From a virus: a stretch of 64,000 bases of DNA. This document shows positions 14,673 through 38,031 of the stretch, one piece after another. Position numbers and translations under genes: made by a program. Under the pieces are notes generated by a model that saw only the letters and a program-made list of their open reading frames with translations, was not told the origin of the DNA and searched no databases. Numbering within the stretch: the first letter of the stretch is position 1; the number at the start of each line of letters is the position of its first letter. The stretch covers positions 32,001-96,000 of IMG/VR virus record IMGVR_UViG_3300030616_000506. The stretch is one strand, 5' to 3'.

Positions 14673-14674
14673 TA

Positions 14675-15280
14675 ATGGTTCATCATTCTGGTTTAACTGG
14701 AACTCAACTCCATAATCCTAGAGGTATTCAGTATGCTGATGATATATTAGATTGGGATTCAAATCGTTGGTTTAATTCTGGTATTATATGGAATGGTAGT
14801 TACTGGGTTCCTAAATCAAGTAGTAATACATCAGAAGGAGGATCAGCTACTCTAGATGAATTAACCGATACTAATCTAACTACTCCAGCTAGTGGAGAAA
14901 CTTTAGTATATAAAGCTGATGATGAAAAATGGGAAAATGAGCTTCCATCTCTTACTTATAATGTGGCTAACGTTATACTATATTCAGGACAATATTTAAG
15001 TATGGCTAGATATTCTACTAGTGAATGTACTTATATATGGCAAGCATCTGTTTGTAATTCAGGTGGAGCATCCGTTAGTGGACTAAATATAGAATTATTA
15101 TGTAATGATACTAGTGTTTATAAAACATCATCTGCTATTTTACAGAAAGGATATCCTCTTGATAAAGCTCAACCAGGTGAAATAGAAATTAGAATAATGC
15201 ATTCAGGTGGACATACTTATGGAAGTCAAGAACATCAACTTGAATATGGTATGGGTTTTATGCAAGTATCTGTTTATTAA
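14675..15280 (+). CDS. Minor tail/fibre-associated protein
   Basis: GGAGGTGG RBS; LDELTDTNLTTPASGETLVY....KWEN fibre-type repeat; Ser-Gly rich. Confidence 0.6.
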   Translation: MVHHSGLTGTQLHNPRGIQYADDILDWDSNRWFNSGIIWNGSYWVPKSSSNTSEGGSATLDELTDTNLTTPASGETLVYKADDEKWENELPSLTYNVANVILYSGQYLSMARYSTSECTYIWQASVCNSGGASVSGLNIELLCNDTSVYKTSSAILQKGYPLDKAQPGEIEIRIMHSGGHTYGSQEHQLEYGMGFMQVSVY

Positions 15281-15295
15281 TCTAGGGAGTAATAT

Positions 15296-15568
15296 ATGAC
15301 TAATATTAATTATCCAGAATCAGTAACTAACAATTATGAGAAAGCAGCTTTTCTTTATAGAGTTCAGGAATTATTGAGATTAGAATTCAATAATAAGGGT
15401 AAACAATATAGAGAGAAGAAAATCTCAGATGAGGATTGGAAATCCTATAAAAAGGAGTGGGATAATAAACATCTAAAGATAGTTAATGCTATGTTAGAAA
15501 TTAGATCTCAACTTCAAAATGATGATAGTTTAGAGGTTGATCTAGAAAATATCTTTACTGGTAAATAA
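15296..15568 (+). CDS. Hypothetical helical protein (possible fibre assembly chaperone)
   Basis: GGGAG RBS; charged helical 90 aa in the tail module. Confidence 0.55.
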   Translation: MTNINYPESVTNNYEKAAFLYRVQELLRLEFNNKGKQYREKKISDEDWKSYKKEWDNKHLKIVNAMLEIRSQLQNDDSLEVDLENIFTGK

Positions 15569-15570
15569 AT

Positions 15571-16263
15571 ATGCCTATAGAAGATTTTCATAAACTTTAT
15601 GTTGAACTAGATCCTAGTAGTAAAATAACTAAGAGTCACACTAGAGTAACCGCTAATTCTTTACCTAGAAATGAAGTTGCATATGTCTATAAAGACTTTG
15701 GTAAAGATTATTTTAAAGATATTATCCATCTTTTTGAAATATTTATAGGGACATATGATGCTAATTCAGAGTGTGTATTATATGGAGTAGAAAATAACTT
15801 AGGAGATTATGCCCAATGTACAGCTGCAGGTCTTGCTGGGTTCCATGCTTTAATTATAAATACAGAAAATAAGAGATATCTTTATTTTAAGGACAATGAT
15901 TCTCACAGTGATTCTAATGCTACTATTGGAATAAATACCCTTTATTATCCTAAGATAACTAGAGTTGGTACCACAGTTTCAATGGTTATTTATACAGATG
16001 CTGCTAGAACTAATATTCTTGATACTGTATCTATAACTACATCAGCTGAAGGATTGAGATATTTATATCCTTTAATGGGAGATAGTGGAGATCAAGCTGA
16101 TCAAATCTTTAATGGATATTCTCAGAATTATGATTTACAAGAAGGACATCCTTATACAAAGGGAGGAACCTACTTAGGTTCAATGAATTATGGTGATGGA
16201 ACCCATTTGAGATCATCTAATAATGGGAATAAGGATAATCTAATAGGCACTTGTTACCAATAA
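15571..16263 (+). CDS. Hypothetical virion protein, possibly ConA/lectin-like fold
   Basis: Beta-rich pattern (LYYPKITRVGTTVSMVIYTD); tail-module context. Confidence 0.5.
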   Translation: MPIEDFHKLYVELDPSSKITKSHTRVTANSLPRNEVAYVYKDFGKDYFKDIIHLFEIFIGTYDANSECVLYGVENNLGDYAQCTAAGLAGFHALIINTENKRYLYFKDNDSHSDSNATIGINTLYYPKITRVGTTVSMVIYTDAARTNILDTVSITTSAEGLRYLYPLMGDSGDQADQIFNGYSQNYDLQEGHPYTKGGTYLGSMNYGDGTHLRSSNNGNKDNLIGTCYQ

Positions 16264-16278
16264 CTTTTTATATATATA
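16256..16278 (+). promoter_or_regulatory. Possible archaeal BRE-TATA-like element upstream of 16289
   Basis: accaataactttttatatatata; spacing to ATG is somewhat short and the genome is AT-rich. Confidence 0.2.
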
Positions 16279-16288
16279 AGTAATTGAT

Positions 16289-16831
16289 ATGGCATCTGAT
16301 AAGCAAAATTATCCCAATGCTGGTCATAAAGCATTTCCCTATTTTTTTACTACTGATGAAGATGATGTTAATCCCATAGAGGGATTTTGGTTAAAGGAGC
16401 CTTACTCTCCACCCTTTGTGGAGGATTATAAATATAACTATGATCTAGCTATATTCTATAATTCTTTAGCAGGAAATGATTTTGTTGATTGTAGATGTAG
16501 CAGATGGGATATTCAGAATTATAATGTTATAGTGGAGACATGGTTAAATTCTACAGACTTAAAGAGTATTAGAGATAATATAAGACCTGGAGCTGTAGGT
16601 GAACTATATAATATATTAGGAAGACCTCGATATTACGATAAAACCTGGAGAGGTAAAAATACTCTAAGGTTATTACCTACACCATCATCTGCTAGTATGA
16701 GAACTAGTAATCTAAAAAATATGAGAGATGAGACATTAATATATGTTAAAAATATAACCACTCATCCCATAAATGAAAATTGGACTGAAATAAAAATAGA
16801 GGGAATGATTAGCGGAACTAATAGTTTATAA
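16289..16831 (+). CDS. Virion protein, 'RWD' paralog 3 with N-terminal extension
   Basis: CRCSRWDIQNYNVIVETWL...RPGAVGELYNILGRPRYYDK...IKIEGMISG, very similar to 9559-9939. Confidence 0.7.
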   Translation: MASDKQNYPNAGHKAFPYFFTTDEDDVNPIEGFWLKEPYSPPFVEDYKYNYDLAIFYNSLAGNDFVDCRCSRWDIQNYNVIVETWLNSTDLKSIRDNIRPGAVGELYNILGRPRYYDKTWRGKNTLRLLPTPSSASMRTSNLKNMRDETLIYVKNITTHPINENWTEIKIEGMISGTNSL

Positions 16832-17003: not shown

Positions 17004-17855
17004 TCAATCTTTATTTTTGGTGCTCATAGCACCCTTAATTTTAAGCCAATCTTTATTTTTTCTAATTTCTATATTCTTTTTCCATGATGCATCCAATACT
17101 TTTGGGTCTATGCCTAACTCTCTGGATTTATATATTAGTGATCTAAGATCCTTAGGAAAACATAATCCTCCAAAACCAAAGTCTCCATCATGTCCCGGAA
17201 CATCCATATGAGAATTACCTATTCTACCGTCAGCTAATAGCATTTTCTTTACCTCTTCAAAATCTATACCTAATTTTTGGCATATCTGATAATATTCGTT
17301 CATTAATGATACTTTAACTGAAAAGAAACAGTTGGCTGAATATTTAACCATTTCAGCTGTAGTTGGATCAGTCCAATATATAGGAGTATGGATAAATCTC
17401 TCTCTATAGAGTTTATCTACTTCACATAGATCATCTGGATCTCCCCCTATAATAATTCTAGAAGAATTTATAAAATCTAATTTTGATGTTCTTGCAGTTA
17501 AAAACTCTGGATTAAACACAATTCTTAAGTGAGGTATATTTTTTTTTATTCTCTCCGTAGTTCCAGGAGGAATAGTGGATTTTATTATAAGTATCTTTTT
17601 TGGAGTAATATATTCTCTACTTTTTTCTATTGTTTTTTCCAATATAGAAATATCACATTCTCCTGTATCAATATCAGATGGTGTAGGTACACATATAAAT
17701 ATAAAGTCACTATCCCTTATAGTCTCTTCAAATGTATTCTCAGATATAATAGGATCTATATCATATATTCTAAAATCAGCTATTTGAGCAAATCCATGTT
17801 GAATTGCTCTTCCGACCATTCCAAATCCTATAATTCCTATTATACATTTCTTCAT
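17004..17855 (-). CDS. UDP-glucose/GDP-mannose dehydrogenase family, short form
   Basis: GFGMVG, CVPTP, KSTIPPGT, NPEFL, AEMVKY..N, GFGGLCFPKD. Confidence 0.92.
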   Translation of the reverse strand: MKKCIIGIIGFGMVGRAIQHGFAQIADFRIYDIDPIISENTFEETIRDSDFIFICVPTPSDIDTGECDISILEKTIEKSREYITPKKILIIKSTIPPGTTERIKKNIPHLRIVFNPEFLTARTSKLDFINSSRIIIGGDPDDLCEVDKLYRERFIHTPIYWTDPTTAEMVKYSANCFFSVKVSLMNEYYQICQKLGIDFEEVKKMLLADGRIGNSHMDVPGHDGDFGFGGLCFPKDLRSLIYKSRELGIDPKVLDASWKKNIEIRKNKDWLKIKGAMSTKNKD

Positions 17856-18421
17856 ATCTTTTTCCTCATAACTACAAGTGTATTTCTTCTACCATATAGT
17901 TCTCTGGGTATCTTATTTTTTCCAATTGATTTTATTATATCAAAGTACTCTTCAAGTCCATATAGTGTATCTAAATTATGATAATAATCATGTATAAATA
18001 AAACTGATTTCTCATCCATATATTTGAGGGCTGCTAAAGCACAAGCTTTTCTAGATCTACCATCTATTAATATTGCATCAAATCTTTTCTCTCCAAATTT
18101 CTCTATATAATTTATGTAATTTTTATAAAATATATCATCACAATATGGATATTTATCTACCTTTTTAACTTTCGCTAGATTCATATATACATTATCATAA
18201 CGTTTAAATTTCTCTATCCTATCTTTAACTTGTAAGAAAAAGTCCTTGTCATGCTCTATACTATAGTATTTTTTTACAAATTTTGGAAAGTAGACTGTAC
18301 TACCACCTGCTCCCCACTCTAACATTATGCTATTCTTATCTAAATAAGATACAACACAAGAAATCTCTTTAAGTGTCATTAATGGAGTATCACCTAAATT
18401 TCCTTTTTTACTTATCTTCAT
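17852..18421 (-). CDS. Class I SAM-dependent methyltransferase (probable start 18421)
   Basis: LEWGAGGST, SIEHD, FDAILIDGR..R, IHD. Confidence 0.8.
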   Translation of the reverse strand: MKISKKGNLGDTPLMTLKEISCVVSYLDKNSIMLEWGAGGSTVYFPKFVKKYYSIEHDKDFFLQVKDRIEKFKRYDNVYMNLAKVKKVDKYPYCDDIFYKNYINYIEKFGEKRFDAILIDGRSRKACALAALKYMDEKSVLFIHDYYHNLDTLYGLEEYFDIIKSIGKNKIPRELYGRRNTLVVMRKKI

Positions 18422-19373
18422 ATATAATCCTTGTTCCCTCATCCTCAAAGTTAAATGGTAATTCCTTAAGATCACTTAGGGCATATCTAACATCATTCTG
18501 TTTATCTGGTTCACAATAGAATAAAATAAAACCACCAGATCCAGCTCCACATATCTTTCCACCCTTAGCTCCAGATTTTATTCCTCTATTATAAATATCA
18601 TCTATTATATTATTACTAACCTTACCAGTACTCTTCTTTATTTTCCATACTTCATTAAGATAATAACCCATATCTTTTAGGTTATCTTTAATTATATCAT
18701 CATAAATGCACTTTGCTAACCAACATAGATCAGATACATCATTATATATGTCATCATATCTTTCTTTTTGGTCCTTCAATACACTTCCAGCACATCTCGT
18801 CATACCAGTATGAAATAATAACATATTATCCTGCATTTTATTATAGGTCTCTATATCAGTAAATACTGGAGATATCTTAACTCCTTTTCTATTAAATATC
18901 AACTTATTTAGACCTCCAAAGGTACATGCATATTGATCTTGTTTACCTATTGGTTCTCCCAATATTTCTATTTCAATCTTACATGCATCTTCAGCTAATT
19001 TGGATCTATTGAAGGTTATACCCTTATATGTATATAGTGCATTAAGTAATCCAACGGTAAACGCAGAACTTGATCCTAATCCACTTCCTCCTACTGTATC
19101 TGCTAGAGATACTATTTCAAGAGGTTCTTCTATATCAGCGTACTTAAGACATTCTCTAATTATAGGATGTTTGATATCATTTATATTACTTACAGTTTCT
19201 ACATCTCTATAAACTACTCTAAACTTATCTGAATGACTTTTGGTTATCATAACATATATATATTTATCTATTGTTGTTGATATCACAAATCCATCATTAT
19301 GTTTATAGTAATTCTCTAGGTCTGATAGACCTCCAGCGAGACTTAATCTATAAGGTGTCTTAGATATTATCAT
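18408..19373 (-). CDS. hddA: GHMP kinase, D-glycero-alpha-D-manno-heptose-7-phosphate kinase-like
   Basis: KTPYRLSLAGG.SD, GSGLGSSS, IGKQDQY, GGKICGAGSGGF. Confidence 0.85.
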   Translation of the reverse strand: MIISKTPYRLSLAGGLSDLENYYKHNDGFVISTTIDKYIYVMITKSHSDKFRVVYRDVETVSNINDIKHPIIRECLKYADIEEPLEIVSLADTVGGSGLGSSSAFTVGLLNALYTYKGITFNRSKLAEDACKIEIEILGEPIGKQDQYACTFGGLNKLIFNRKGVKISPVFTDIETYNKMQDNMLLFHTGMTRCAGSVLKDQKERYDDIYNDVSDLCWLAKCIYDDIIKDNLKDMGYYLNEVWKIKKSTGKVSNNIIDDIYNRGIKSGAKGGKICGAGSGGFILFYCEPDKQNDVRYALSDLKELPFNFEDEGTRIIYEDK

Positions 19374-20250
19374 TCTTCATCAAATATTCAACAGTTCTAT
19401 TTACAGCTTCTTGTGTTGTATAATTAGGTTTCCATCTAGTTTCTAATAACTTTCTATTATCCAATATAGTTATAGGTACATCTCCCTTCCAACCTCTATC
19501 TCCTCCAGTAAATATTAATTTTGTTTCATCATCAGTTACTATTTCTGATATGTATCTAGCTAAATTTTTAATTTTTACTGTATCTGATGCAGCTAAGTTA
19601 TATATATTAAAATTACTATCACTATGGGGTAAATTACAAAATGCATCTATACAATCCTCTACATCTAGAAATTGTTTAGTTTGGTTACCGTCTCCTAAAA
19701 CTTCTAACTCTTTAGGATTTTCCTTTAATTTTTTAACAAAGTCTTTAATAACTCCATGTGTATTACTAGGACCTATTATATTTCCTAACCTAAATATGTA
19801 GGACTTTATATCAAAACAATGACTATAAGCTGATATAAGTTTCTCACAAGCTAACTTGCTTGCTCCATACATAGAAATAGGTTCTAAATTAGGTGCATCT
19901 TCTTTTGTAGGGATATCTACCCTTTCTCCATATATAGTAGCACTAGAAGTAAATACTAATTTCTTACAACCGTTACTTACCATAAATTCTAATACAGAAT
20001 GAGTTCCTATTATATTATAACTTAAATCTATAGATCTATTTTCTACTCCACCTCTTACATCTGCATTTGCAGCTAAATGATATATAATATCATATTTCTT
20101 ATCTGGATAATCTCTTGGTATATTTATATTCTTATCTATCTTTAGATCTATAATATCAACTTCATGTCCTTCTGATGTAAGTCTATCAACTAGATGACTT
20201 CCTATGAATCCCTTTCCTCCTGTAACTAATATATTCATATTTTTCTCCAT
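19360..20250 (-). CDS. NAD-dependent epimerase/dehydratase (extended SDR)
   Basis: TGGKGFIG, HLAANADVR, YGASK, GGDRGWKGDVP. Confidence 0.92.
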   Translation of the reverse strand: MEKNMNILVTGGKGFIGSHLVDRLTSEGHEVDIIDLKIDKNINIPRDYPDKKYDIIYHLAANADVRGGVENRSIDLSYNIIGTHSVLEFMVSNGCKKLVFTSSATIYGERVDIPTKEDAPNLEPISMYGASKLACEKLISAYSHCFDIKSYIFRLGNIIGPSNTHGVIKDFVKKLKENPKELEVLGDGNQTKQFLDVEDCIDAFCNLPHSDSNFNIYNLAASDTVKIKNLARYISEIVTDDETKLIFTGGDRGWKGDVPITILDNRKLLETRWKPNYTTQEAVNRTVEYLMKNDNI

Positions 20251-21098
20251 ATTCTAGGTATACCATGTATCTCTTCTTTATCCTTTAATTCAACCTTAAG
20301 ATGTAATTCAAAACCATATTTAGGTAATAATTTCTCTATATTTAAGTTGTGTGCAGAATATTTCCAATTTTTACCATGATCTCTTATATAAAGTATACCG
20401 TCTTTCCTTATAACATCCCTAAATACATCCAGCATATAGTATACTAGATCTTCATTTATCTCTTGTAAAACTTGAACACAAAGTATTTTATCAAAGTAAT
20501 TCTTAGGTAAGATATCAGCTCTCCAAGTAGGTATATGGTATATTCCAGGATCATATATTTTTAATTTATTATTATCTAAATATTCTACTAATCGATGCTT
20601 TGATTTAGAATAGTATAGATTCTGCATACAATAAGACTGTAGTATAGCATCCATACCAACATATACTAGATCATCCTTAAATTGTGATAGTAAATTGATT
20701 TGTCTTCCATATCCTGGTCCGAAATCTAGAATTTTATTACCCTTATATAAATAAGTATATAAATAATCTTCTGCATTATATCTCCCTATAGTAGAATAAT
20801 ATTTATCAAAGTCTTTAATTTTTACAATAGCATCATCATAGAAATAACTAGAATTAATATAGGGTTCTATATAATCATCATCAATATTGTCTTTAAATTC
20901 ACTTTTAGATATCCAATCCATCCATTTATTTATATCCTTAATCCCTTCATAAGTATCAAAGGTTGATGGATAATTATCTGGATATTTAACATGTTCTATT
21001 CTCTCTTCTTGATAATCCCAAGATATCATCCAAGGTTTAATATATTTCTTATCTTCTTTAATTACTTCTCGAAATCTTCTTTCAATCTTAGTATGCAT
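20235..21098 (-). CDS. Putative sugar O-methyltransferase (class I SAM)
   Basis: ILDFGPGYGR, VGMD, FDKILC..VLQE, GILYI. Confidence 0.75.
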   Translation of the reverse strand: MHTKIERRFREVIKEDKKYIKPWMISWDYQEERIEHVKYPDNYPSTFDTYEGIKDINKWMDWISKSEFKDNIDDDYIEPYINSSYFYDDAIVKIKDFDKYYSTIGRYNAEDYLYTYLYKGNKILDFGPGYGRQINLLSQFKDDLVYVGMDAILQSYCMQNLYYSKSKHRLVEYLDNNKLKIYDPGIYHIPTWRADILPKNYFDKILCVQVLQEINEDLVYYMLDVFRDVIRKDGILYIRDHGKNWKYSAHNLNIEKLLPKYGFELHLKVELKDKEEIHGIPRIWRKI

Positions 21099-21868
21099 TT
21101 TTTAATATCCCATTGATATTTAATATCTGACAAATCTACATCTCTATTTACAATCAAAGGAATTTCATCAATTTGATCATTTGTAAATGGTAAATCAGTT
21201 AATGTTCCATGATCAGAAGTTATTAATATAGTTTGATATCCAGATAACTCTTCTATATATTTAATTACCTCTCGATATCTTCTAACTCCCCATAGATAAA
21301 CTTCTTTCTTTAGAGCTTTATCTTTTCTTATTTCATCGTAAGTCTTTAATGAAGGTAATCTACCTAATTCATATGGGCCAGGAAACATAACTGCTCCCTT
21401 AACTATAGATGAATGTATCCAGAATAAGTCATAGTCATCTCTTGCAGCTTCAGCAAATATACAAAGCTCTTCACAAGGTACTCTCTTAACACCTTTATCT
21501 TCTAGACTATGATAAAATTTCCATACTTGTTCACCAGAATATGGAGAATCTCCTACAACTTTCTCAAAGAATTTTGACTTATCAAAGTGATCCCAGACTA
21601 AATCTAATTTATTACCAAATCTATCTTCCCAAATGAAGGATTCGGTTTTATATTTATCTGTAAATCTAGTAAAGAAATCTGGATGTAGATTCTTAATTCT
21701 CTCTCCACTCCATAAACAAGTTAGTCCTATAGGAGTAGCTGATACTCCCTGCATCGAGAATGGTCTAACATCGCATCTTATCATCCTCATGGATTGCTCT
21801 TTAAATATATCTTTATATAAATCTTTTGCATATTTCCAGTTTAATCCATCAATACTAATTATTATCAT
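21062..21868 (-). CDS. Alkaline phosphatase/phosphodiesterase superfamily protein
   Basis: IIISIDG, SATPIGLTCLWSG (Thr nucleophile position), LITSDHG, IPLIV. Confidence 0.75.
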   Translation of the reverse strand: MIIISIDGLNWKYAKDLYKDIFKEQSMRMIRCDVRPFSMQGVSATPIGLTCLWSGERIKNLHPDFFTRFTDKYKTESFIWEDRFGNKLDLVWDHFDKSKFFEKVVGDSPYSGEQVWKFYHSLEDKGVKRVPCEELCIFAEAARDDYDLFWIHSSIVKGAVMFPGPYELGRLPSLKTYDEIRKDKALKKEVYLWGVRRYREVIKYIEELSGYQTILITSDHGTLTDLPFTNDQIDEIPLIVNRDVDLSDIKYQWDIKKCILRLKEDFEK

Positions 21869-23151
21869 TATATTAATTCAACTATCTCTTTAATTGTACA
21901 ACATTTATTATTTACATCAAAACTTCTCTTATTTATTAATATAGATTCTGCCACTATTTTCATACTTAAATAACTAGCTCTTAACAAATGATTTGCATAT
22001 ATTACTATTGATGCTCCTAATTTTTGTAAATCTTCTTCATACATATGATTATATGTACTTGGAACTAATACTAGTGGAACTCTATTTTTAATATTTTTAT
22101 ATTTATTACAAAATTCTATTAATTCTGTTGGTATATGGTTTTTACTATGTATCATAATAGCATCTGCACCAGCTGATATATAAGCTTTTGCTCTGATTAA
22201 AGCATCTTCAACTCCTTTATTAGCAATTAATGATTCTATTCTAGCTATTATCATAAAATCTTCTGTTAATTTGGAATTAATACCCAATTTAATTTTTTCA
22301 CAGAAATTCTCTACAGATTCTTGAGAGTGAGTAGTATTATCTAACAATGAATTTTTTTTAGGATATTTTTTATCTTCTATTATTATAGCAGAGACTCCTA
22401 TTCTTTCTAGTGTTTTTACCATAGATACAAAATTCTCTTTTGTTCCTCCAGTATCACCATCTACTATTATAGGCTTAGTGGTTACTTCTATTATTTCATT
22501 TACTCTCTGAAGTCTAGATGTGAAGTCTACTATTTCTATATCAGGTTTTCCTTTAGATGCAGAATCAGTTAAACTACTTTCCCATATTGCATCAAACTCT
22601 AGTATATTATTATCATTTTCTATTTTAGTCTTTTCTACTATAATACCTGATAGTCCATTATGAGATTCTAGTACTCTAACTAATGGCTTATACTTTAATA
22701 GGTTCTTTAGAGCTTTTCTTCTCTCATTTGGAGTTATACCATTTTTTAATTTGTTATTTATTAATTTAGTGGAGGATATCCCCTCAGTATAAGATGGCTC
22801 TATTAATTCTCCACCCCATTCACTAATAATATCTATAACATTCTGTCTTATCTCTGACTGTATTCCCTTCTTCCAATCATCACCATGCACTACATAATCT
22901 GGTTTATATTTAATGAGGTTATCTGTATAATCTAATGTATATTGAGGTACTACTCTAGTAACTCCATTTATATTACTAATAACTTTTTTTCTTTGTTCGT
23001 ATGAAGTTATTGGAACTCTTTTATATGAAGCTATAGCTTGATCTGTTAATAGACCTACTATTACATCTCCATAATCTCTAGCTTTATCAATTAGATTAAT
23101 ATGACCTACATGCAGGTAATCTGCTGACATTCCAACATATACTGTCTTCAT
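21868..23151 (-). CDS. pepM: Cytidylyltransferase-phosphoenolpyruvate mutase fusion (Fom1-like architecture)
   Basis: N-terminal HVGH, VHGDDW, GISST; C-terminal DGDTG, EDKKYPKKNS (EDK-x5-NS signature), ARIES, GADAIMIHS, IYAN. Confidence 0.96.
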   Translation of the reverse strand: MKTVYVGMSADYLHVGHINLIDKARDYGDVIVGLLTDQAIASYKRVPITSYEQRKKVISNINGVTRVVPQYTLDYTDNLIKYKPDYVVHGDDWKKGIQSEIRQNVIDIISEWGGELIEPSYTEGISSTKLINNKLKNGITPNERRKALKNLLKYKPLVRVLESHNGLSGIIVEKTKIENDNNILEFDAIWESSLTDSASKGKPDIEIVDFTSRLQRVNEIIEVTTKPIIVDGDTGGTKENFVSMVKTLERIGVSAIIIEDKKYPKKNSLLDNTTHSQESVENFCEKIKLGINSKLTEDFMIIARIESLIANKGVEDALIRAKAYISAGADAIMIHSKNHIPTELIEFCNKYKNIKNRVPLVLVPSTYNHMYEEDLQKLGASIVIYANHLLRASYLSMKIVAESILINKRSFDVNNKCCTIKEIVELI

Positions 23152-23771
23152 AATAACTCTCTTACTTTTTTATATTCAGTAGCTAGATTTAATATATGAG
23201 CTAATGCTACACCATGAGGTATATCATATTTAGCAGTTAGTGCATATGACATACCATGTATTATATTAGTTCCAGTATAATCTATAGCATTACCAGCTAA
23301 TATACTAGCATATAACCAATCATCATTTCTTATAGATTCTATAGCTTCTAAACAAATTGTAGCTATATGAGGTTTACATTTCTTAGATGTAAATGATTCT
23401 ATAATATGACATAGACAATCTATCTTACTAGCTATTTCTATCTCTTTTGGTAGATGCTCTAAATATTCATATTTTAATTTAGTTAGTGGTAACTTACAAT
23501 CTATGTTATGTTTCTTTCCTTCATGCCAATATACTGCGTGTCTCGTTCCAGATGCACCTGAGTATGTAGTAGGTATTGCTATTATTTGATATCTACATAA
23601 AATCTTAGCAGTATCTATCACAGAACCCCCTCCAATAGCTATGACCTCATCATATAGATTTCTCTTCTGGACTATTCTTATATCTGGTGGATGCTCTACT
23701 ATATATATTTTATCATATTTCCAATCATCTGCATATTTCCTAGTTGAAGGGCTTACAACCATTAATCTCAT
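23148..23771 (-). CDS. Iron-containing alcohol dehydrogenase, phosphonoacetaldehyde reductase-like (short)
   Basis: GGGSVIDTAK, IPTT, D.LCH..E, HGMSYALT, PHG; adjacent to pepM. Confidence 0.85.
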   Translation of the reverse strand: MRLMVVSPSTRKYADDWKYDKIYIVEHPPDIRIVQKRNLYDEVIAIGGGSVIDTAKILCRYQIIAIPTTYSGASGTRHAVYWHEGKKHNIDCKLPLTKLKYEYLEHLPKEIEIASKIDCLCHIIESFTSKKCKPHIATICLEAIESIRNDDWLYASILAGNAIDYTGTNIIHGMSYALTAKYDIPHGVALAHILNLATEYKKVRELL

Positions 23772-24249
23772 TATAAAACCTCTCAGTTATATCTTTATGT
23801 TTCATATCTATTCTAGGTGGTATATCTTTATCATCTTTCTTTATTTTTATTACACTACAGTTACATAGGTCAGTAAAATTAATAGCATCACTACAAGTTT
23901 TCTGTCCACCTGTACTTTGATATTGATTATTATCTAATATACATAATGTAAGATTTGGTAAATCTAACTTATTCATTAATGTTAATGTACCTAAACTCAT
24001 TAATACCTCTCCATCACCAGCTATTACTAATACTTCTCTATTGGTATGTAGAGCTAATCCTATTCCAAATCCCAATGCAGATCCCATGGAACCCATCATA
24101 TAGAAGTTAGCTGGTCTGTCACATACTCTATATAATTCTCTACTTATCATTCCTGCAGATGAAACTACCAGTTCATCATCAAATCTTTTTGATAAAAGTT
24201 CTACGATTTCTCTTCTTGATTTTAATGAATTTGTAATTATCATATTCAA
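23740..24249 (-). CDS. Phosphonopyruvate decarboxylase beta (TPP-binding) subunit
   Basis: GMISREL, FYMMGSMG, GDG..LM, LDNNQYQSTGGQ. Confidence 0.88.
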   Translation of the reverse strand: MNMIITNSLKSRREIVELLSKRFDDELVVSSAGMISRELYRVCDRPANFYMMGSMGSALGFGIGLALHTNREVLVIAGDGEVLMSLGTLTLMNKLDLPNLTLCILDNNQYQSTGGQKTCSDAINFTDLCNCSVIKIKKDDKDIPPRIDMKHKDITERFYNEINGCKPFN

Positions 24250-24544
24250 GTAATTCTAATAAATATTTGGATATCTTATACATAAACTTATGATGTGCAG
24301 GATCTTTCCTCAAACTTATAATCAAGTGAGGTAGTGGTATATTATAAGGCTTATATAGACTAGTTACTATATCTACTATATTACCTATTCCACTATTTTG
24401 CATATACACTTCTGGTTTCTTACCTGCAAACCATGCTCCAGCTGCGATAGCCATAGCTTCTCCTTCACTAGTGCATGGTACATCTACATCTTTAATAAAT
24501 TCCTTTAATTTAGAGCAAGGAATTCCATACTTAATCTTCTTCAT
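24179..24544 (-). CDS. Phosphonopyruvate decarboxylase alpha subunit (short)
   Basis: GIPCSKLK, EGEAMAIAAG, MQNSGIGN. Confidence 0.88.
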   Translation of the reverse strand: MKKIKYGIPCSKLKEFIKDVDVPCTSEGEAMAIAAGAWFAGKKPEVYMQNSGIGNIVDIVTSLYKPYNIPLPHLIISLRKDPAHHKFMYKISKYLLELLEYDNYKFIKIKKRNRRTFIKKI

Positions 24545-24695
24545 CTTTATATGGAGACGGCACTCTAATTATTTCATCTCCCTTATATCCACAATGTGAG
24601 CATCTCCAGAACCAAATTAGAAAATTATCTTTTTCTATATTGCCCCATTCTAGACCACTCTTACATCTTGGACAAATATATTCTTCACCAGCCAT
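24531..24695 (-). CDS. 54-aa zinc-ribbon microprotein (not in ORF track)
   Basis: MAGEEYICPRCKSGLEWGNIEKDNFLIWFWRCSHCGYKGDEIIRVPSPYKDEED; overlaps both neighbours. Confidence 0.75.
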   Translation of the reverse strand: MAGEEYICPRCKSGLEWGNIEKDNFLIWFWRCSHCGYKGDEIIRVPSPYKDEED

Positions 24696-25320
24696 AAAAT
24701 TTCTCTGGGTTTGCTTTAGCTATTCTATACATTCTTTCATATCCTAGATGTGGGGATTGATTCTTTCTGTTTGGGAATGGAATTCCTTCTATAATAGGTT
24801 TATCTAAGAATTTACACAATATTTTCCATGTATCTTTTGACCCAGGTTTATAATTATTCCATTCTATTTCCAAGAAATCTTCCCTATCTTTAAAATATTC
24901 CTTTACATTCTTATTATGATTTCTATACAATTCCAACATATCTTCTTTGTGTGTAGCTAAATATTTAAATCCGTATTCTTCATAATTTCTTTTATCTACT
25001 TTTGCTCGTCTTTCTATTGTCTTGGACCTCATGTTTTGATATAGGATATCAATTATCCATTCTTCCTCTGGACGCTCTACAAATACGAATTTTGAATTTG
25101 GATATTTTTTATCAAATTCTTTGTAAATATACGGCCATGGATAATCTTCAAATGCATCATAATTATTTGCTACTTTCCATAATTCTTCATAATTACCTTC
25201 ATTCCAATCTATTACTAATTTTCCTACATTTTCTATGACTCTATATCCAAGAATTTGTAGAGCTGTACCAAATGCTGAAGTTCCAGTTTTACCCATTCCT
25301 ACATATAATACTTTTTCTAT
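24685..25320 (-). CDS. Sulfotransferase family protein (probable ATA start at 25320)
   Basis: KVLYVGMGKTGTSA P-loop-like motif, FED.PW, YPNSKF...R, W..LC.FL; GAGGTGA RBS 4 nt before ATA. Confidence 0.8.
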   Translation of the reverse strand: MEKVLYVGMGKTGTSAFGTALQILGYRVIENVGKLVIDWNEGNYEELWKVANNYDAFEDYPWPYIYKEFDKKYPNSKFVFVERPEEEWIIDILYQNMRSKTIERRAKVDKRNYEEYGFKYLATHKEDMLELYRNHNKNVKEYFKDREDFLEIEWNNYKPGSKDTWKILCKFLDKPIIEGIPFPNRKNQSPHLGYERMYRIAKANPEKFYGW

Positions 25321-25352
25321 ATTATCACCTCACATCCTTTTACTGTTGGATA

Positions 25353-25955
25353 TCATTCATATATCTGCAATTTTAATACATCTTCAATTGATTTTAAATC
25401 TTTTTCAAAGAATTCTACATTATTTCTTATTTTGTTATCATCCCAATCCCACCATTTTAATTTTAAGAGATATTTTCTAATATCCTCATTAAATCTATAT
25501 TTTATACGCTTAGCTGGTACTCCTCCAACTATTGAATAGTGATCTATGTCTTTAGTTACTACTGCTCCAGCTCCTATTACAGCTCCATTACCTATAGTTA
25601 CTCCTTCTAGAATTATTACTCTAGTTCCTATCCACACATCATTTCCTATATTAACTGCTTTTTTACTATTTCTTAAACCTCGATTACCTATGATTGTGTC
25701 ATATAAAGCTCTACTTATAGAAGGTTGTTTGGTATTATAATTAACTGTTTGAAATATAACTTCTCTAGCTATATTACAATATTTACCTATATTTATCTCT
25801 CCACCATAAAATTCACACCCTTCATTAACTATACTTCCGTGATCTAGATAAACATTTCCCTTAACTTTAGTATTTATATTACTAACTCCAGTATGTCCTC
25901 TAACAAAAAACTTACCTTTGCCTCTCATATAAATTTGTTTGTATCCTTCTTTCAT
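25353..25955 (-). CDS. Hexapeptide O-acetyltransferase (CatB/Vat-like)
   Basis: IGNDVWIG...[16 protein letters not shown]...GGVPAK.IKYRF..KWWDW. Confidence 0.9.
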
Positions 25956-27202
25956 ACTTTATCCTTATGTCTAAATACAACATATCTTCTATATTTATCT
26001 ATCAATCTCTTTTGCTCATATCTTAAATCTTCATTTGATAAAGTCTTTGTGTTCACCCAATTATTATTGTATTCATCAAAGGTTGACCAATCCCAATCTT
26101 TCATCAAATCATGATCATAATATTCGTTATTAGGGAACGGTGATAATAAAGCAAATCCTACCATATCTGGCTCTAATTCATCACATAATTCTTCTGTCAT
26201 TTTTATATCTTCAATTGTTTCATTTGGCATTCCTAATAAAAAATAAGCTCTAGTTTTAATACCATACTCTTTAGTTAATTTGAATGCATCCCTTATCTTA
26301 TCTACATTTGTATGTTTATTCATATCCTTTAGTATTCTAGGAGATCCACTCTCTACTCCATACCATAATTCTGTACAGTTAGCTTTATATAGATGTTCCA
26401 ATAAATCTCTGTTTATGGTATTAACGTGAGCATTAGCACCAAAAGGTATATTAATATTTCTTTTAATCTTCTCATTACAGAATTCTTTTACCTTACCTCT
26501 ATTTAAGGTAAAGGTATCATCTGCAAACTTTATAAAATCTATATTCCACTTATTTACGGTATATTCAAATTCATCTAAAACATTAATTGGAGATCTTATT
26601 CTAGCTTTACTACCCCATAAAAATCTACTACAACAAAAGCTACAATTAAATGGACATCCTCTACTACTAAATATAGATGTTATTCTCTTACCTCCATCAT
26701 TATAAGCTTGTTGTATATTCCTCTCATTCTTGATAGTATCCCTATCAGGATAAGGTAAGTTATCTAAATTCTTAATAGATCTAGAATTAACTATAGTATT
26801 TCTACTTTGTCTATTTTCTAATATATTTCTAACTATCCTATAGAAGGATAACTCTCCCTCTCCCTCTATGACTATGTCTACATCTTTCTCTCTTATAACA
26901 TCTTTAGGTAGACATGTAGGATGTATTCCTCCCATAACTATCCAATTATTTTCACTTCTTAATTTCTTAGATAAATCAAGAGCATGTTTAAATTGTGGAC
27001 TAGTGCATCCGAATCCTATTATATCAGAATCTTCTGCTCCTCTTAATATGGTTTTATCACTATCATAAAAACCTGAATAGAAATTTATATCTAAATCTTC
27101 TTTAATATATTTTCTCAAAGTAGATATTATATATCCTATACCAAGTGCTTCCCATGTATGTCCTTTATATCCAACATTAGGTTGTATAAATGTTATTTTC
27201 AT
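25952..27202 (-). CDS. Cobalamin-binding radical SAM enzyme (class B methylase-like)
   Basis: [38 protein letters not shown]. Confidence 0.93.
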
Positions 27203-27936
27203 TTAGCCTCTATTAATTTCCACCCATTTCTTGTGGCCCATCTAACATATCCAGTTCTGTTTATCCAGTGCTCTTGTCTTCTCCAAGATGCAGTTGCATC
27301 ATCATCTTTATTAGGCATTATTTCTTTTTTATACATTGGTAACATCCCTTCTTCTGGTGGATGTGGGGTATAAACTTTGCAGTTACCATATTTCTGTATT
27401 GTGTATGCAAAGTGCATATCCGATATAGCTACATAGGTAGGAGGTTTCTCTCTTAGAAAATGTTGTGTATAACTATTTGGATAAAAAGATACTCCTCCAC
27501 CAAAATCTACTAGTTCTAACTCTCCATTCCTTACTTTACTTGATATTCTAGTATTAGGAAGATAAGATTTCTTACTACTTAATCTAACTCCTCTCTGTAC
27601 ATACCATCCTTGAGTCTCTTCTTGCTTCTTAATAGCCCACTCTACAAATTTAGGACCTGGAGGTCTATCATCATCTATGGCTAATATATAATCAGACTTA
27701 GTTAGATGTCCTAACATTATAAAGGCTATAGTTTCAAACCTATTAGTATTACTATTAATAATATCTATCTTTAGCTCATCATCTTTTATATGTATATCCT
27801 TACCATCTTCAGTACAATTATTATTCCATATCATTACCCTCTCTATAGGATATGTAAATTCTTTTATTCTCTTTATTAGAATAGGAATATTATCTGGTCT
27901 TCTATAAGATGGTATTAGGATTGTTACTGATTTCAT
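27199..27936 (-). CDS. GT-A fold glycosyltransferase
   Basis: ILIPSYRR, IWNN, LAIDDD. Confidence 0.75.
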   Translation of the reverse strand: MKSVTILIPSYRRPDNIPILIKRIKEFTYPIERVMIWNNNCTEDGKDIHIKDDELKIDIINSNTNRFETIAFIMLGHLTKSDYILAIDDDRPPGPKFVEWAIKKQEETQGWYVQRGVRLSSKKSYLPNTRISSKVRNGELELVDFGGGVSFYPNSYTQHFLREKPPTYVAISDMHFAYTIQKYGNCKVYTPHPPEEGMLPMYKKEIMPNKDDDATASWRRQEHWINRTGYVRWATRNGWKLIEAK

Positions 27937-28889
27937 TCTACCTCATCTAACAGTTTTCTTATATACTTCTTATCTCCCTTAAAGAACATATCTTCTTTAT
28001 ATCCACCATTATCTATATCTCTTTCTATAACTAATAAGTCATCTATTTCCTTTATAGCTGATATTTCATCATCATATAGAATTTCTTCATATATTTTTTC
28101 ACCTGGTCTTATACCTATTCTCTCTATCTTAACGGTCTTATCTTTAGAATATTTATCTATAAGAGCATCAATTATATCTCCAGTTTTGATGATGGGCATT
28201 CTCTTTAGGAATATCTCATCTCCTTTAGATAAATATAATCCCTTAATAACTATCTCTGCAGCCTGGACTGGTTTTAAATAGAATCTGGTCATCTTTAGAT
28301 CTGTTATAGTTATAGGTTCTCTCTCTTGTATTTGTTCCTTAACTATAGGAACTACGGATCTATTGGAGAATAAGACATTACCGAATCTAGTTACTGAGAA
28401 TATTGTATTCTTATATTTCTTGCTAGCTAATCTAGTTAGATATTCTCCTATTAGTTTAGTCATTCCATAATAACTAATAGGATTTACAGCTTTATCTGAA
28501 CTTAGATATATAAATTTCTTAATATCATATTTACCACTACATTTTATAACATTTTTTGTTCCATTTATATTAGTATCATATACCATATCTCTAAATTCTT
28601 CTGCTTCTGGAACAAATTTATATGCAGCAGCATGTATTACATAATCTACATTATAAAATAAATCATCTAACTCATTTAAATTTCTAATATCTACATGTTC
28701 TAAATTAAATTTAGACCAGTTATCATAGAAATCTTCTTTAAATTCCAATAATTCACCTATATCATTGGATATTATTTTGATTAATTTTATGTCATACTTT
28801 AATAAATTTCTACATATTTCTTTACCTATAGATCCACTTCCACCTGTTATTAGAATGATTTTGTTTTTATAAAAATCTTCTATTTCCAT
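27933..28889 (-). CDS. NDP-HexNAc 4,6-dehydratase (PseB/CapD-like)
   Basis: TGGSGSIG, HAAAYKFVP, SSDKAVNP, YGMTK, RFGNV, IRPGEK. Confidence 0.9.
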   Translation of the reverse strand: MEIEDFYKNKIILITGGSGSIGKEICRNLLKYDIKLIKIISNDIGELLEFKEDFYDNWSKFNLEHVDIRNLNELDDLFYNVDYVIHAAAYKFVPEAEEFRDMVYDTNINGTKNVIKCSGKYDIKKFIYLSSDKAVNPISYYGMTKLIGEYLTRLASKKYKNTIFSVTRFGNVLFSNRSVVPIVKEQIQEREPITITDLKMTRFYLKPVQAAEIVIKGLYLSKGDEIFLKRMPIIKTGDIIDALIDKYSKDKTVKIERIGIRPGEKIYEEILYDDEISAIKEIDDLLVIERDIDNGGYKEDMFFKGDKKYIRKLLDEVE

Positions 28890-29917
28890 TTTAAATCTTT
28901 AATATTATACATTGGTACATCCATAAACTTATTCCAATTAGGATCCAATTCTCCTTTGTTGTGATTATGCCACATCTTATATCTTCTAAGTTGAATTTTA
29001 GAGGGTTTCCAAGAATTAGCTCTTATATGTTTAACTCTAAATATATTTCTCATCATAATATCATCTCTAATTTGTGGTTTAGGAGCAGGATCATCTATTT
29101 CATATATATAATTTTGTGATGCAACTCTTTTGTATTTACTTATCATGGCTAATCTATTACCAGCATCCATATCAATACCGGCTAGGGCTCCATCGTATAA
29201 CTCATCATATCCATTAATTTCTAACATTTCTTCCATTGATACTGTAGCTGAACATGTCCAAAACATATTCATTGGTATCACTGGGTGTATTTCATCAGTA
29301 AATGTTAAAGGCTTATGTTCTCCTCTCCATCCATCCTTTATGAATTCTACCTTTCTAGGGCCTAATTTCTGTTCCTTTTCATAATTATACTTGTCCTTAT
29401 CGTATTTAATACACCTAAAGGATCTTCCCGTCATATATTTACCTTCTTTCCATAGGTTCCATATCTCCTCTAGTATATATTTATTGAATATGATTAAATC
29501 ATCTATATGCCATATAAGTTCTCCATCTGCATTAATAACTCCAGTATTCTTATTATTTGCTACTGTTTGATATTGTGGACCTAATTTATGCCATATAGAA
29601 GGTTTTTCCTTAACTAGCTTTATTGGAAAATTACATTCCTTCTGATATTCTCTTACGAGTTCTTCTGCATCTTCTGGATATCTATGGCTGATGATCAATT
29701 CAAAATCCTTAAATGTTTGGCTCTCCAAACAATTAAGGGTAGGCTCCAGTATATGTTTAGCATTGAACAAATTCCATCCAGCTAATTCTATAAATTCATC
29801 TGTGAATATTGAGTTATAATCATCAGTTTCTTCTAAACCTTTCTGTATTTCATTCATTTTATGTATAACATTTTTATTTAATCTGTTTGTAGTTAGTATA
29901 ACACTAATTTTATGCAT
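28880..29917 (-). CDS. Family 2-like glycosyltransferase
   Basis: ISVILTT, L..QTFKDFELII, KNTG...ADGELIWHIDD, INGYDE. Confidence 0.8.
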   Translation of the reverse strand: MHKISVILTTNRLNKNVIHKMNEIQKGLEETDDYNSIFTDEFIELAGWNLFNAKHILEPTLNCLESQTFKDFELIISHRYPEDAEELVREYQKECNFPIKLVKEKPSIWHKLGPQYQTVANNKNTGVINADGELIWHIDDLIIFNKYILEEIWNLWKEGKYMTGRSFRCIKYDKDKYNYEKEQKLGPRKVEFIKDGWRGEHKPLTFTDEIHPVIPMNMFWTCSATVSMEEMLEINGYDELYDGALAGIDMDAGNRLAMISKYKRVASQNYIYEIDDPAPKPQIRDDIMMRNIFRVKHIRANSWKPSKIQLRRYKMWHNHNKGELDPNWNKFMDVPMYNIKDLKWK

Positions 29918-31295
29918 ATAATCCTTCCTTAAGTTGTTTGTAATTATTATAAATTTTATCCTTATATTTACTATACTCTTCAGATACTTCTATGATTTCC
30001 TTTATTCCATCATCTATACTATACTTATACCTTATACCTAACTCTTTCATTAATTTAAGAGAATTTATTATATAGTCTCTCTTATCTAACATATCTTCTT
30101 TTGTTCTTATATCACAATCTGGTATAATGCTCTTTATCTTTTCACCTATTGTACGGATATCTTCACTCTCTGAAGATATATTGTAGGTTTTACCCTTAAT
30201 CACATTTATTGGAGCTTCTATACACTTCTTATATATAAGAGCTGCATCCTTTACATGACAGAATCCTCTATATTGATTTCCTCCATATATAGTTATCTCC
30301 TTATCTATACAACCCTTTATTGATAGAAGATTGATAACCAAATCAAATCTCATCCTATCTGATAAGCCATATAAAGTGCCCATCCTTAATATTATTGGTG
30401 AGAAGTTTTCATCTGATAACTCCAATATCCCCTTTTCTGATTCTAGTTTCATTCTTGCATAAAGAGATACTGGATTTAACTCAGATTTCTCATCTAATAA
30501 ACGGTTGTGCTTACTTGCTCCATATACACTACAGGTTGATGCAAATATAAATCTATTTATTTGACTATACTTACAAATCTCTGCAATCATCTTTGATGCT
30601 AAGTAGTTAATCTCTATTGTTTCTTCTGGATTTAAAGAGGATGCTTCATCTCCAACTATAGCTGCTAGATGAATAACAGCATCCACACTCTTGGTAGCTT
30701 CTATCAAATCCTTTAGGTTTCTTATGTCTCCCAATATAAATTTAAAGTTCGGATTGTTCTCTATTTTCTCTATACCTGATCTACCATAAGTTAGGTTATC
30801 CAAAACCTTAACCTTATAACCTGCATCCAATAATATCTTAGAAAGAACTGACCCTAAGTATCCTGCTCCACCTATTATTAAAATATTTTTTATTATATTA
30901 TTTTCCTTATACCCATCCTCTAATTTTCCTTGATAACCCTTTTCTGATATGAATATTACATCAATTATCTTATCTTCCTCATCTATTATAGGTATAGCTA
31001 AAACTCCTCTCTCAGGTAATTTCTTCCTTACATTTTTCTTGTTTAATATATTCTCTATAGTTAATTTATTCCATCCCCTTCTTAGGAATATAGGTTTCTT
31101 ATTTATGATATCAACTATATTATCTTCAACTGTGTGACCTTTTAGAATAGCACTCCTAATATCTCCATCTGTCACAGATCCAATCAATTTATTGTTTTCA
31201 GTTATAAATAATATACCATAACCCATTATATCTAACTTCTTCATTATACCCTTTAGGTTGTTTGATTTGTCTGCTATTATAGAATTCAATTTCAT
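29910..31295 (-). CDS. CBS-pair + NAD-dependent epimerase/dehydratase fusion
   Basis: N-terminal GSVTDGDIR...IPIIDE (CBS); C-terminal GGAGYLG, HLAAIVGD, STCSVYG, YARMK, RMRFDL. Confidence 0.88.
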   Translation of the reverse strand: MKLNSIIADKSNNLKGIMKKLDIMGYGILFITENNKLIGSVTDGDIRSAILKGHTVEDNIVDIINKKPIFLRRGWNKLTIENILNKKNVRKKLPERGVLAIPIIDEEDKIIDVIFISEKGYQGKLEDGYKENNIIKNILIIGGAGYLGSVLSKILLDAGYKVKVLDNLTYGRSGIEKIENNPNFKFILGDIRNLKDLIEATKSVDAVIHLAAIVGDEASSLNPEETIEINYLASKMIAEICKYSQINRFIFASTCSVYGASKHNRLLDEKSELNPVSLYARMKLESEKGILELSDENFSPIILRMGTLYGLSDRMRFDLVINLLSIKGCIDKEITIYGGNQYRGFCHVKDAALIYKKCIEAPINVIKGKTYNISSESEDIRTIGEKIKSIIPDCDIRTKEDMLDKRDYIINSLKLMKELGIRYKYSIDDGIKEIIEVSEEYSKYKDKIYNNYKQLKEGLYA

Positions 31296-38030: not shown

Positions 38031-38031
38031 A

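Follow-up and report, generated by a model that had tools for sequence, protein, structure and literature searches.

In the present study, we examined a 64,000-nucleotide stretch of viral DNA (hereafter the window), which covers bases 32001-96000 of the 144,545-bp IMG/VR virus record IMGVR_UViG_3300030616_000506, recovered from a marine sediment sample. In this window, four contiguous minus-strand open reading frames (ORFs), tightly packed or overlapping, occupy positions 21868-24544 and carry, in the order Ppd-alpha, Ppd-beta, ADH and PepM, the two halves of a putative phosphonopyruvate decarboxylase (Ppd), a short iron-dependent alcohol dehydrogenase (Fe-ADH) and a phosphoenolpyruvate (PEP) mutase (PepM) fused to a cytidylyltransferase (CyTase). 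On balance, we consider it fairly probable that this tailed phage encodes its own early phosphonate pathway, leading to cytidine monophosphate-activated 2-hydroxyethylphosphonate (CMP-HEP), and uses it for the decoration of a glycan. In the proposed route, the PepM domain would isomerise PEP to phosphonopyruvate, and a miniature two-subunit decarboxylase dependent on thiamine diphosphate (ThDP), of 121 + 169 residues, would convert this into phosphonoacetaldehyde, pulling the unfavourable PepM equilibrium forward. The 207-residue Fe-ADH would then reduce phosphonoacetaldehyde to HEP, which the Fom1-type CyTase domain would activate to CMP-HEP. Finally, the phosphonyl group of CMP-HEP would pass to a sugar which the soluble enzymes around the module produce, the candidate transferase being an adjacent 268-residue protein of the alkaline phosphatase (AP) superfamily. 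The first and fourth steps are predicted from strong homology, the second and third from weaker homology together with conservation, fold prediction and context, and we infer the transfer step and the acceptor (virion or host surface). All enzyme roles in the module are read here from sequence, structural models and gene context.

The 427-residue fusion protein has a CTP_transf_like domain at residues 9-132 and a PEP_mutase domain (PF13714) at 149-405 in Pfam. It matches TIGR02320 with 379.2 bits, above the equivalog cut-off of 319.55, and scores lower with the families of phosphonopyruvate hydrolase (158 bits) and methylisocitrate lyase (109 bits). The active-site motif read in the translation, IIIEDKKYPKKNS (EDKKYPKKNS), fits the pattern EDK-X5-NS, which separates PepM from other members of the isocitrate lyase superfamily. 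The same pattern has been used as a filter for PepM (PMC8942020). The closest solved structures of the PepM part are the PepM enzymes 5UNC and 1M1B (E ~1e-43). The CyTase domain (PF01467, 55 bits, above cut-off) shows HVGH and GISST in translation, which correspond to nucleotide-binding motifs of the HxGH and (R/x)TxGISTT types, and its best solved match is the CyTase domain of Fom1 (5X3D, E 3e-50 over residues 3-132); this strong homology predicts a role in forming CMP-HEP. Across the module genes, E-values of 1e-20 to 1e-114 exclude a chance resemblance. The original prediction had listed the same four contiguous genes with the motif intact, and this is confirmed by Pfam, NCBIfam and the translations; the chemistry which it had proposed, from PEP through phosphonopyruvate, phosphonoacetaldehyde and HEP to CMP-HEP, is supported as well, the match of the CyTase domain with 5X3D included.

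The decarboxylase is predicted to consist of two miniature subunits. The alpha (PYR domain) subunit matches positions 6-126 of the 360 in TIGR03297 (82.3 bits, E 3e-23, equivalog cut-off 312.5 not reached) and the 181-residue alpha chain of a solved split Ppd (PDB 9iz3_A, E 1e-7). Its catalytic Glu27 is invariant in 15 viral homologues, and homologues of 111-129 aa were found in other viral contigs. The start of the beta (PP domain) subunit is uncertain, with a TTG start codon and a 71-nt overlap with the alpha gene. This subunit matches TPP_enzyme_C in Pfam (52 bits, above cut-off), positions 170-298 of TIGR03297 (110.2 bits, again under the equivalog cut-off of 312.5) and PDB 9iz3_B (E 5e-23). 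Both catalytic features of ThDP enzymes, the PYR-domain Glu and a GDG-X(24-27)-N(N) motif, are found in the pair: in the window the beta subunit has a complete ThDP/Mg motif, GDG-X26-N, and among 14 viral beta sequences Gly78, Asp79 and Asn107 are invariant, while the third residue of the motif is Gly or Ala. Docking of the two subunits was predicted with an ipSAE interface score of 0.84, against 0.00 for the best of three controls; the mark applied is reached by 58 of 80 solved complexes and by 2 of 110 mismatched pairs. The docking runs agreed in at least 94% of contacts, with a predicted local distance difference test (pLDDT) score of at least 74 for the partner. Because a like complex, 9iz3, has already been solved and possibly memorised, this pass in the models indicates likeness and is no proof of binding.

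The third enzyme of the module is a predicted phosphonoacetaldehyde reductase. Pfam finds ADH_Fe_C (PF25137) at 57.9 bits (cut-off 27) and Fe-ADH (PF00465) at 34.4 bits (cut-off 31.3), and within NCBIfam the phosphonate-type Fe-ADH family TIGR03405 scores best, at 71.7 bits, the cut-off of 423.7 not being reached. The full two-domain architecture of Fe-ADHs (~350-390 aa) is absent from this 207-residue protein; in comparison with 1VHD, about 50 N-terminal and about 80 C-terminal residues are missing. Among 31 short ADH homologues (~203-289 aa), no variation is seen in the GGG of GGGS, in PTT or in the metal ligands D118, H172 and H186, and at least 90% keep the fourth ligand, H122, and the Ser of GGGS. 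The AlphaFold2 (AF2) model is confident (pLDDT 95, predicted template modelling score 0.90). In Foldseek, it covers 45-50% of its Fe-ADH targets with TM-scores of 0.80-0.83 by query and 0.45-0.50 by target. Because the TM-score is high by query and only 0.45-0.50 by target, the modelled protein is best described as a core-only enzyme.

The half size of these three enzymes, and a gene order different from the cellular one, had been missed by the original prediction. The Ppd halves and the ADH sum to 497 aa, compared with ~740-780 aa in 40-odd cellular loci. The entire Ppd-plus-ADH stretch measures 1397 nt, too little for full-length genes to hide behind frameshifts; on account of this length and of the conservation of the short forms elsewhere, we reject the reading of the short ORFs as frameshifted pseudogenes. 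The identical gene order, with sizes of 111-123, 155-169, 207-253 and 420-431 aa, recurs in six independent large virus-like contigs (group A), which are the phage of the window, L002, L009, L072, L073 and L074. In L074 the module abuts homologues of the tail genes of the window phage. L009, L072 and L073 were called virus-like from gene content only: in L009 a gene for a family-B DNA polymerase is next to the module, in L072 there are an SNF2 helicase and genes resembling a clamp loader and T4 endoV, and L073 contains an intein. The group-A frames are all open at amino-acid identities of 35-71%, and pairwise ratios of nonsynonymous to synonymous substitution (dN/dS) are 0.13-0.58 where computable, which are rough values with dS saturated.

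A profile search with the short ADH recovered 32 IMG/VR loci, about 20 of which (group B) hold PepM, a split mini Ppd (121-129 + 152-158 aa) and an ADH of 260-270 aa, with PepM first; the search was pattern-seeded, and the IMG/VR counts are to be taken as minimum numbers. In all, similar cassettes occur in about 25 other viral contigs. The group-B locus L079 belongs to G003 (IMGVR_UViG_3300007511_000001), a complete 189-kb genome with direct terminal repeats, a large terminase subunit (TerL) match of 5e-62 and a protease; its TerL is unrelated to that of the window phage. The L079 cassette is flanked by GT8-like and GT2-like genes and a TagF-like CDP-alcohol phosphotransferase, and about 17 further IMG/VR contigs have the same layout.

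Because sizes and order recur, catalytic residues are invariant, dN/dS is below 1, the ADH fold is confident and docking is predicted, the short forms are conserved, not decayed. It is very improbable, in our view, that the three short genes are decayed or non-catalytic remnants, so that only PepM or nothing is functional and no HEP is made. The genes are indeed 30-45% shorter than their cellular counterparts and far under the equivalog cut-offs, and the stretches which the ADH lacks at both ends relative to 1VHD would fit with decay. Against this, open mini frames of constant length are kept across deep divergence in six group-A and about 17 group-B viral contigs with the catalytic residues invariant, dN/dS stays below 1, and the folds are confident and compact. 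Furthermore, the equilibrium of the PepM reaction is unfavourable, and PepM alone is thermodynamically futile without a decarboxylase.

We read the contig as a tailed-phage genome with a minimum size of 144.5 kb. Its first 11 kb encode TerL, the portal protein, a head protease and a capsid protein of the HK97 type, with PHROG matches of 5e-85 (TerL), 8e-29 (portal) and 3e-16 (capsid protein, in which PF05065 was also found) on the same contig as the module. A tape measure protein, a 2057-aa ORF on the full contig that extends into the window, matches PHROG tape-measure families (best E 6e-31), so that TerL, portal, HK97-fold major capsid protein and tape measure, by which membership of Caudoviricetes is recognised, lie on one molecule. 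A DNA polymerase, a ribonucleotide reductase and MazG are among the other phage genes. After the plus-strand tail gene block, every gene from 17004 to 63572 is on the minus strand. The relative L002, a 137.8-kb IMG/VR contig (CheckV 87% complete) whose TerL is 59% identical over the shared part, carries the same module 0.8 kb further from the homologous tail genes, and homologues of the tail block adjoin the glycan island described below in L002, L070 and L074.

That the locus is not viral, being a misassembled or cellular glycan island wrongly joined to phage DNA, we regard as extremely improbable. The sequence is a metagenome assembly rated 45% complete by CheckV, and G+C-poor glycan islands are common in cells; against a false join stand the even G+C (26-34%) and the junction of tail genes and island repeated in L002, L070 and L074 from other samples. 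In addition, positions 8000-27900, which reach from the tail genes into the module and its neighbours, are tiled with even coverage by Logan contigs of two marine-sediment runs belonging to different studies (~105x in one run and ~9x in the other), the individual contigs being short and one of the runs possibly being the source sample of the window. The viral setting of the original prediction, which was to fall if the locus proved not to be physically linked to viral genes, is supported by the structural genes on the contig, by L002 and by the even depth.

The tail block also contains an insertion/deletion polymorphism. The contigs of run X2, and a minority of those of run X1, pass over a 728-bp stretch at 9926-10655 in which the ORF 10025-10615 lies; the skipped part ends GT..AG. 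A separate observation concerns the TerL of this phage (G000), which has 801 aa (L005:1416-3821), compared with 469 aa in the relative G001. The difference is an insert of ~330 aa between residues 54 and 384, and residues 32-279 match DnaC-like and primase PHROGs; the insert may be an intein or another mobile insert. No tRNA genes were found in the 128 kb scanned, which is the whole contig minus the stretch just upstream of the window.

The module lies within a co-oriented glycan-synthesis island (Table 1). A nonulosonic-acid route is represented by a PseB-like dehydratase, a DegT aminotransferase, a WbuX-type amidotransferase, formyl- and acyltransferases, a de-N-acetylase and NeuC-, NeuB- and NeuA-like proteins, and a heptose route by an SIS isomerase, an HAD phosphatase, PfkB and GHMP kinases and a nucleotidyltransferase. 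The island also has a split transketolase, methyl- and sulfotransferases, three glycosyltransferases and six radical SAM enzymes, of which two bind B12. Several of its enzymes are short for their Pfam families, namely UDP-glucose dehydrogenase (283 aa, without the C-terminal domain), the NeuC-like protein (Epimerase_2, 269 aa), NeuB (223 aa) and CMP-sugar synthetase (194 aa); the shrinkage of proteins looks island-wide, beyond the phosphonate genes. No multi-pass membrane protein was found among the minus-strand genes of the island in a crude hydropathy scan. A LAGLIDADG homing endonuclease gene is also present within the island (51736-52584), and a homologue of it adjoins the module in L074.

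As a candidate for the transfer step, we consider the product of the gene directly after pepM, a soluble 268-residue protein. It gave no Pfam or NCBIfam match, and a profile of its family found nothing significant among PDB sequences, so it was placed by fold comparison only. Its AF2 model (pLDDT 92) resembles EptC, MCR-1, LtaS, ENPP7 and sulfatases with a Foldseek probability of 1.0. In the family D7, T45, D145, H152, D219 and H220 are invariant; these include the N-terminal metal Asp, the Thr nucleophile (Thr45) and an SDHG-type motif, which together with the AP fold are the marks of the superfamily. Its nearest Atlas clusters are small PF01663 families, mostly archaeal. By its modelled fold, the protein is a candidate phosphonyl transferase or CMP-phosphonate diesterase, neither role being proven. 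A homologue abuts the module in L002 too. Phosphoryl transfer is common to proteins of the LicD, TagF and AP-superfamily types, with CDP- or CMP-activated donors in the case of LicD and TagF. Five further viral cassettes have a phosphoryl-type transferase of one of these kinds within or next to them: an AP-superfamily protein in L002 and, at the corresponding neighbouring position, a LicD-like enzyme in L072 and L073 and a TagF-like one in L009 and L079.

Several points weigh against our interpretation. The Ppd halves and the ADH score far under the NCBIfam equivalog cut-offs, Ppd-alpha reaches only 16.6 bits with Pfam TPP_enzyme_N (cut-off 26.8), and Ppd-beta scores higher with sulfopyruvate decarboxylase beta (129 bits) than with Ppd (110 bits); the catalytic activity of the shortened enzymes is predicted from sequence and unproven. 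Few glycosyltransferases are found in the island, and the glycan acceptor is inferred. Because the relative L070 keeps the 268-aa gene with no PepM within 10 kb, the AP-superfamily protein may not be phosphonate-specific, and BLAST and phmmer found no LicD-like or TagF-like gene in the window phage. The original prediction that the virus caps its glycans with HEP is therefore borne out in part: the module does lie inside a glycan-synthesis island, whereas no transferase was confidently identified and the host surface would be an equally possible target for such capping.

The pathway may also work while its product, CMP-HEP or HEP-bearing sugars, enters the envelope machinery of the host, so that the surface of the infected cell is remodelled, for example as a barrier to superinfection or to keep progeny from adhering to debris, and the virion stays undecorated. 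We treat this as a serious rival, although rather unlikely. The island consists mainly of nucleotide-sugar synthesis and tailoring with only three clear glycosyltransferases, and the host could supply membrane transferases and export. The mini module is also found in a cell-like contig beside a flippase, and cellular PepM clusters have been interpreted as surface decoration (PMC8931226). On the other hand, the hydropathy scan of the island turned up neither a flippase nor a polymerase, a priming transferase or any multi-pass membrane protein, and the island abuts tail genes in three related phages. Furthermore, the 284-aa ORF 41421-42275, which has no Pfam match, resembles viral clusters in which 15-16% of members have an MptE-like (Maf/DUF115) domain; as a lead only, its sequence makes a protein-directed nonulosonate transferase possible. 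The Maf-type MptE-like domain is associated with direct protein glycosylation. A soluble-only island, its adjacency to tail genes and, as a lead, the weakly Maf-like ORF favour cytoplasmic glycosylation of virion proteins. We hold that CMP-HEP probably decorates the glycan built by the surrounding island, that the most likely acceptor is a glycan on virion proteins made in the cytoplasm, and that the host surface is less likely.

The four genes are part of a seven-gene variable cassette (21868-27202) consisting of PepM, the ADH, the two Ppd halves, a sulfotransferase, an acyltransferase and a B12-binding radical SAM enzyme. The syntenic relative L070 is without this block and has two small ORFs (121 and 201 aa) there instead (L070:9034-10004). 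The acyltransferase matches TIGR03308, a phosphonate-metabolism hexapeptide transferase family, with 124 bits, which is under the cut-off. In L074, 4 bases separate a homologous sulfotransferase (55% identity) from a downstream 41-aa ORF, which itself runs into the module. These cassette neighbours may further modify HEP or its sugar. Because no transaminase for 2-aminoethylphosphonate (AEP) and no unknown gene of HepD or MpnS size was found in the cassette, HEP looks like the end phosphonate, as far as the gene content predicts.

We find it quite improbable that the cassette makes a free small-molecule phosphonate instead of a glycan decoration, perhaps a fosfomycin-like compound or 2-hydroxypropylphosphonate, with the B12 radical SAM enzyme acting like Fom3 and the AP-superfamily protein freeing the product from CMP like FomD. 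The block absent from L070 does contain CyTase-PepM, Ppd, ADH and a B12 radical SAM enzyme, a set equal to Fom1/Fom2/FomC/Fom3, and the adjacent AP-superfamily protein could hydrolyse a CMP-phosphonate. The radical SAM enzyme matches P-methyltransferase families weakly (96-103 bits, far under cut-offs), but its best NCBIfam matches are generic (BchE, HpnJ), and B12 radical SAM genes are also present in the PepM-less L070. No family match of the HppE (epoxidase) or FomD (hydrolase) type was found among the scanned island ORFs, for which no dedicated profiles were run. In other viral cassettes the module is accompanied by LicD or TagF transferases and by glycosyltransferases, which fits with glycan tailoring.

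Table 1. Coordinates of the module, its surroundings and one related viral cassette
Feature	Position	Strand	Size and basis
Predicted Fom1-type CyTase (residues 1-135) fused to PEP mutase (residues 145-427)	21868-23151	-	427 aa; Pfam, NCBIfam
Mini Fe-dependent ADH, predicted phosphonoacetaldehyde reductase	23148-23771	-	207 aa; Pfam, TIGR03405
Putative mini Ppd beta (PP domain)	23740-24249	-	up to 169 aa; TPP_enzyme_C, TIGR03297
Putative mini Ppd alpha (PYR domain)	24179-24544	-	121 aa; TIGR03297
268-aa soluble AP-superfamily protein (NPP/phosphoethanolamine-transferase-like)	21062..21868	-	AF2 + Foldseek
Sulfotransfer_4	24685-25296	-	Pfam
Hexapeptide acyltransferase	25353-25955	-	Pfam; best NCBIfam TIGR03308
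B12-binding radical SAM enzyme	25952-27202	-	Pfam
Co-oriented glycan-synthesis island holding the module	17004..55561	-	~39 kb; Pfam/NCBIfam gene content
Short island enzymes	17004-17855, 35309-36118, 36100-36771, 37446-38030	-	
Tail gene block (tape measure + downstream tail proteins)	1..16831	+	PHROG; physical link to virus genes
Group-B cassette: PepM, mini Ppd-alpha, mini Ppd-beta, 260-aa ADH	L079 of G003, 3877-6771 of locus		

In a PepM tree of 72 rows, which was midpoint-rooted only and whose sampling was limited by how the loci were found, a branch with 99% support in the Shimodaira-Hasegawa-like approximate likelihood ratio test separates 65 rows from the remaining seven, which are the six of group A and the long-branch outlier L097. 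Sixteen group-B rows form a clade (support 92) beside Pelagibacteraceae (weak support 84). A group-A mini module is also held by a 120-kb cell-like contig (P0054, ENA ERZ27252253; 2.5-kb piece L117), where its neighbours are full-length sugar enzymes, a Polysacc_synt flippase, a sulfatase-family protein, an archaeal-type A24 peptidase (Arc_PepC_II) and DnaJ. Because a group-A module occurs in this cell-like contig as well, there are hints that the mini module moves between viruses and cells, and that the exchange involved an archaeon.

With regard to the host, homologues of the capsid protein are labelled only by bins of mixed phyla (Actinobacteria, Thorarchaeota). A mini-ADH profile gave no strong match (E 1e-40, 1e-42) in a sample of 401 Woesearchaeota-phylum and 401 'PVC group'-phylum genomes, a search which had no positive control and says little. 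The archaeal hints, which are the mini module beside the Arc_PepC_II peptidase and the mostly archaeal Atlas clusters of the 268-aa protein, are leads and make no host call.

More tentatively, and with doubt as to the whole, we suggest that many uncultured tailed viruses of at least two unrelated lineages, in about 25 contigs, put HEP-tagged glycans on their own virion proteins by a soluble pathway that is wholly virus-encoded, perhaps with further sulfation, acylation or methylation. Viruses would then be direct environmental producers of phosphonate, a possibility which the original prediction had raised, and the 207-aa ADH and the 121 + 169-aa Ppd would be minimal catalytic cores. If true, a phage route to CMP-HEP within the phage's own glycan factory, of a kind that recurs across viral lineages, would be a new phosphonate source, viruses having so far not been counted among the sources, and there would be a new reason for phosphonate tagging, namely a hydrolysis-resistant mark on virions or infected cells. 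The half-size conserved Ppd and Fe-ADH would be natural minimal versions useful for enzymology and for compact pathway engineering. In addition, the attachment of phosphonates to glycans is still a poorly defined step, for which the genes of AP-superfamily, LicD-like and TagF-like proteins next to the modules offer candidates.

The original prediction knew of no characterised viral example. In full-text literature searches, we found no description of a phosphonate biosynthesis pathway in a tailed phage and none characterised biochemically, and to this extent the statement holds; it should be qualified by the AEP pathway predicted in a giant virus (PMC8942020) and by the PepM-CyTase fusion noted in Borg elements (PMC12660748). 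Li & Horsman 2022 (PMC8942020) scanned RefSeq viruses, 364 huge phages and 501 metagenome-assembled genomes (MAGs) of giant viruses, and reported only one viral PepM, which belongs to a predicted AEP pathway in a giant-virus MAG; the phages yielded no PepM. What papers on viromes list is either genes for the degradation of phosphonates or a general category of 'phosphonate metabolism'. Human-faecal 'Bacteriophage sp.' matches at 49-51% identity were set aside; they are unannotated records of 6-8 kb. As a possible precedent from a cultured phage, the protein of Vibrio phage Va2 annotated as 'phosphoenolpyruvate mutase' (MW073017, L118:2890-4194) was considered and rejected. Its motif EDKNPSAKINS reads EDK-X6-NS, it has no Ppd neighbour, its identity is 29% over 151 residues and it carries a long C-terminal extension; going by its sequence, it is probably not a canonical PepM.

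Among known systems, the early fosfomycin pathway of Streptomyces (Fom1 CyTase-PepM, Fom2 Ppd and FomC Fe-ADH, leading to CMP-HEP) has the same four activities and the same CyTase-PepM fusion as predicted for the phage. Cho et al. are said to have reported in 2017 that Fom1 cytidylylates HEP. The phage differs in that its Ppd is split and shortened, its ADH has 207 aa instead of ~370-380, and its setting is a glycan island and not an antibiotic cluster, no epoxidase or FomD family match having been found in general scans of the island ORFs. The split Ppd 9iz3 (alpha 181 and beta 186 aa) is a two-subunit ThDP enzyme like the phage pair. Residues 12-129 of the phage beta subunit, which is 17 residues shorter, match residues 3-120 of the 9iz3 beta chain. 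Residues 20-82 of the phage alpha subunit, including the catalytic Glu, match residues 61-122 of the 9iz3 alpha chain; the latter has about 40 residues at its N-terminus, and some of its C-terminal region, that the phage subunit lacks.

Cellular CyTase-PepM/Ppd/Fe-ADH cassettes in Pelagibacteraceae, Bacteroidales, Treponema, Woesearchaeota and others, with PepM 51-61% identical to that of the phage, have the same predicted product and are set among polysaccharide genes (PMC8931226, PMC8942020). In the 40-odd cellular loci the order is PepM, a Ppd of 353-437 aa that forms one chain (in a few loci it is split or fused) and, where present, an ADH mostly of 364-400 aa, whereas the phage has Ppd-alpha, Ppd-beta, ADH and PepM, the first three with 121, 169 and 207 aa. 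The gene cluster family GCF 881 of a giant virus (a nucleocytoplasmic large DNA virus MAG) is, like the phage module, a virus-encoded PepM pathway beside sugar genes, and has been read as making a viral phosphonoglycan (PMC8942020); it belongs to a virus of eukaryotes and has a PepM-Ppd fusion on the AEP (transaminase) branch, while the phage follows the HEP (reductase) branch. Group B, as seen in G003/L079, shares the mini split Ppd, the short ADH and the CyTase-PepM fusion with the phage, and differs from it by having PepM first, an ADH that keeps a C-terminal extension of ~45-60 residues and, in G003, an unrelated TerL.

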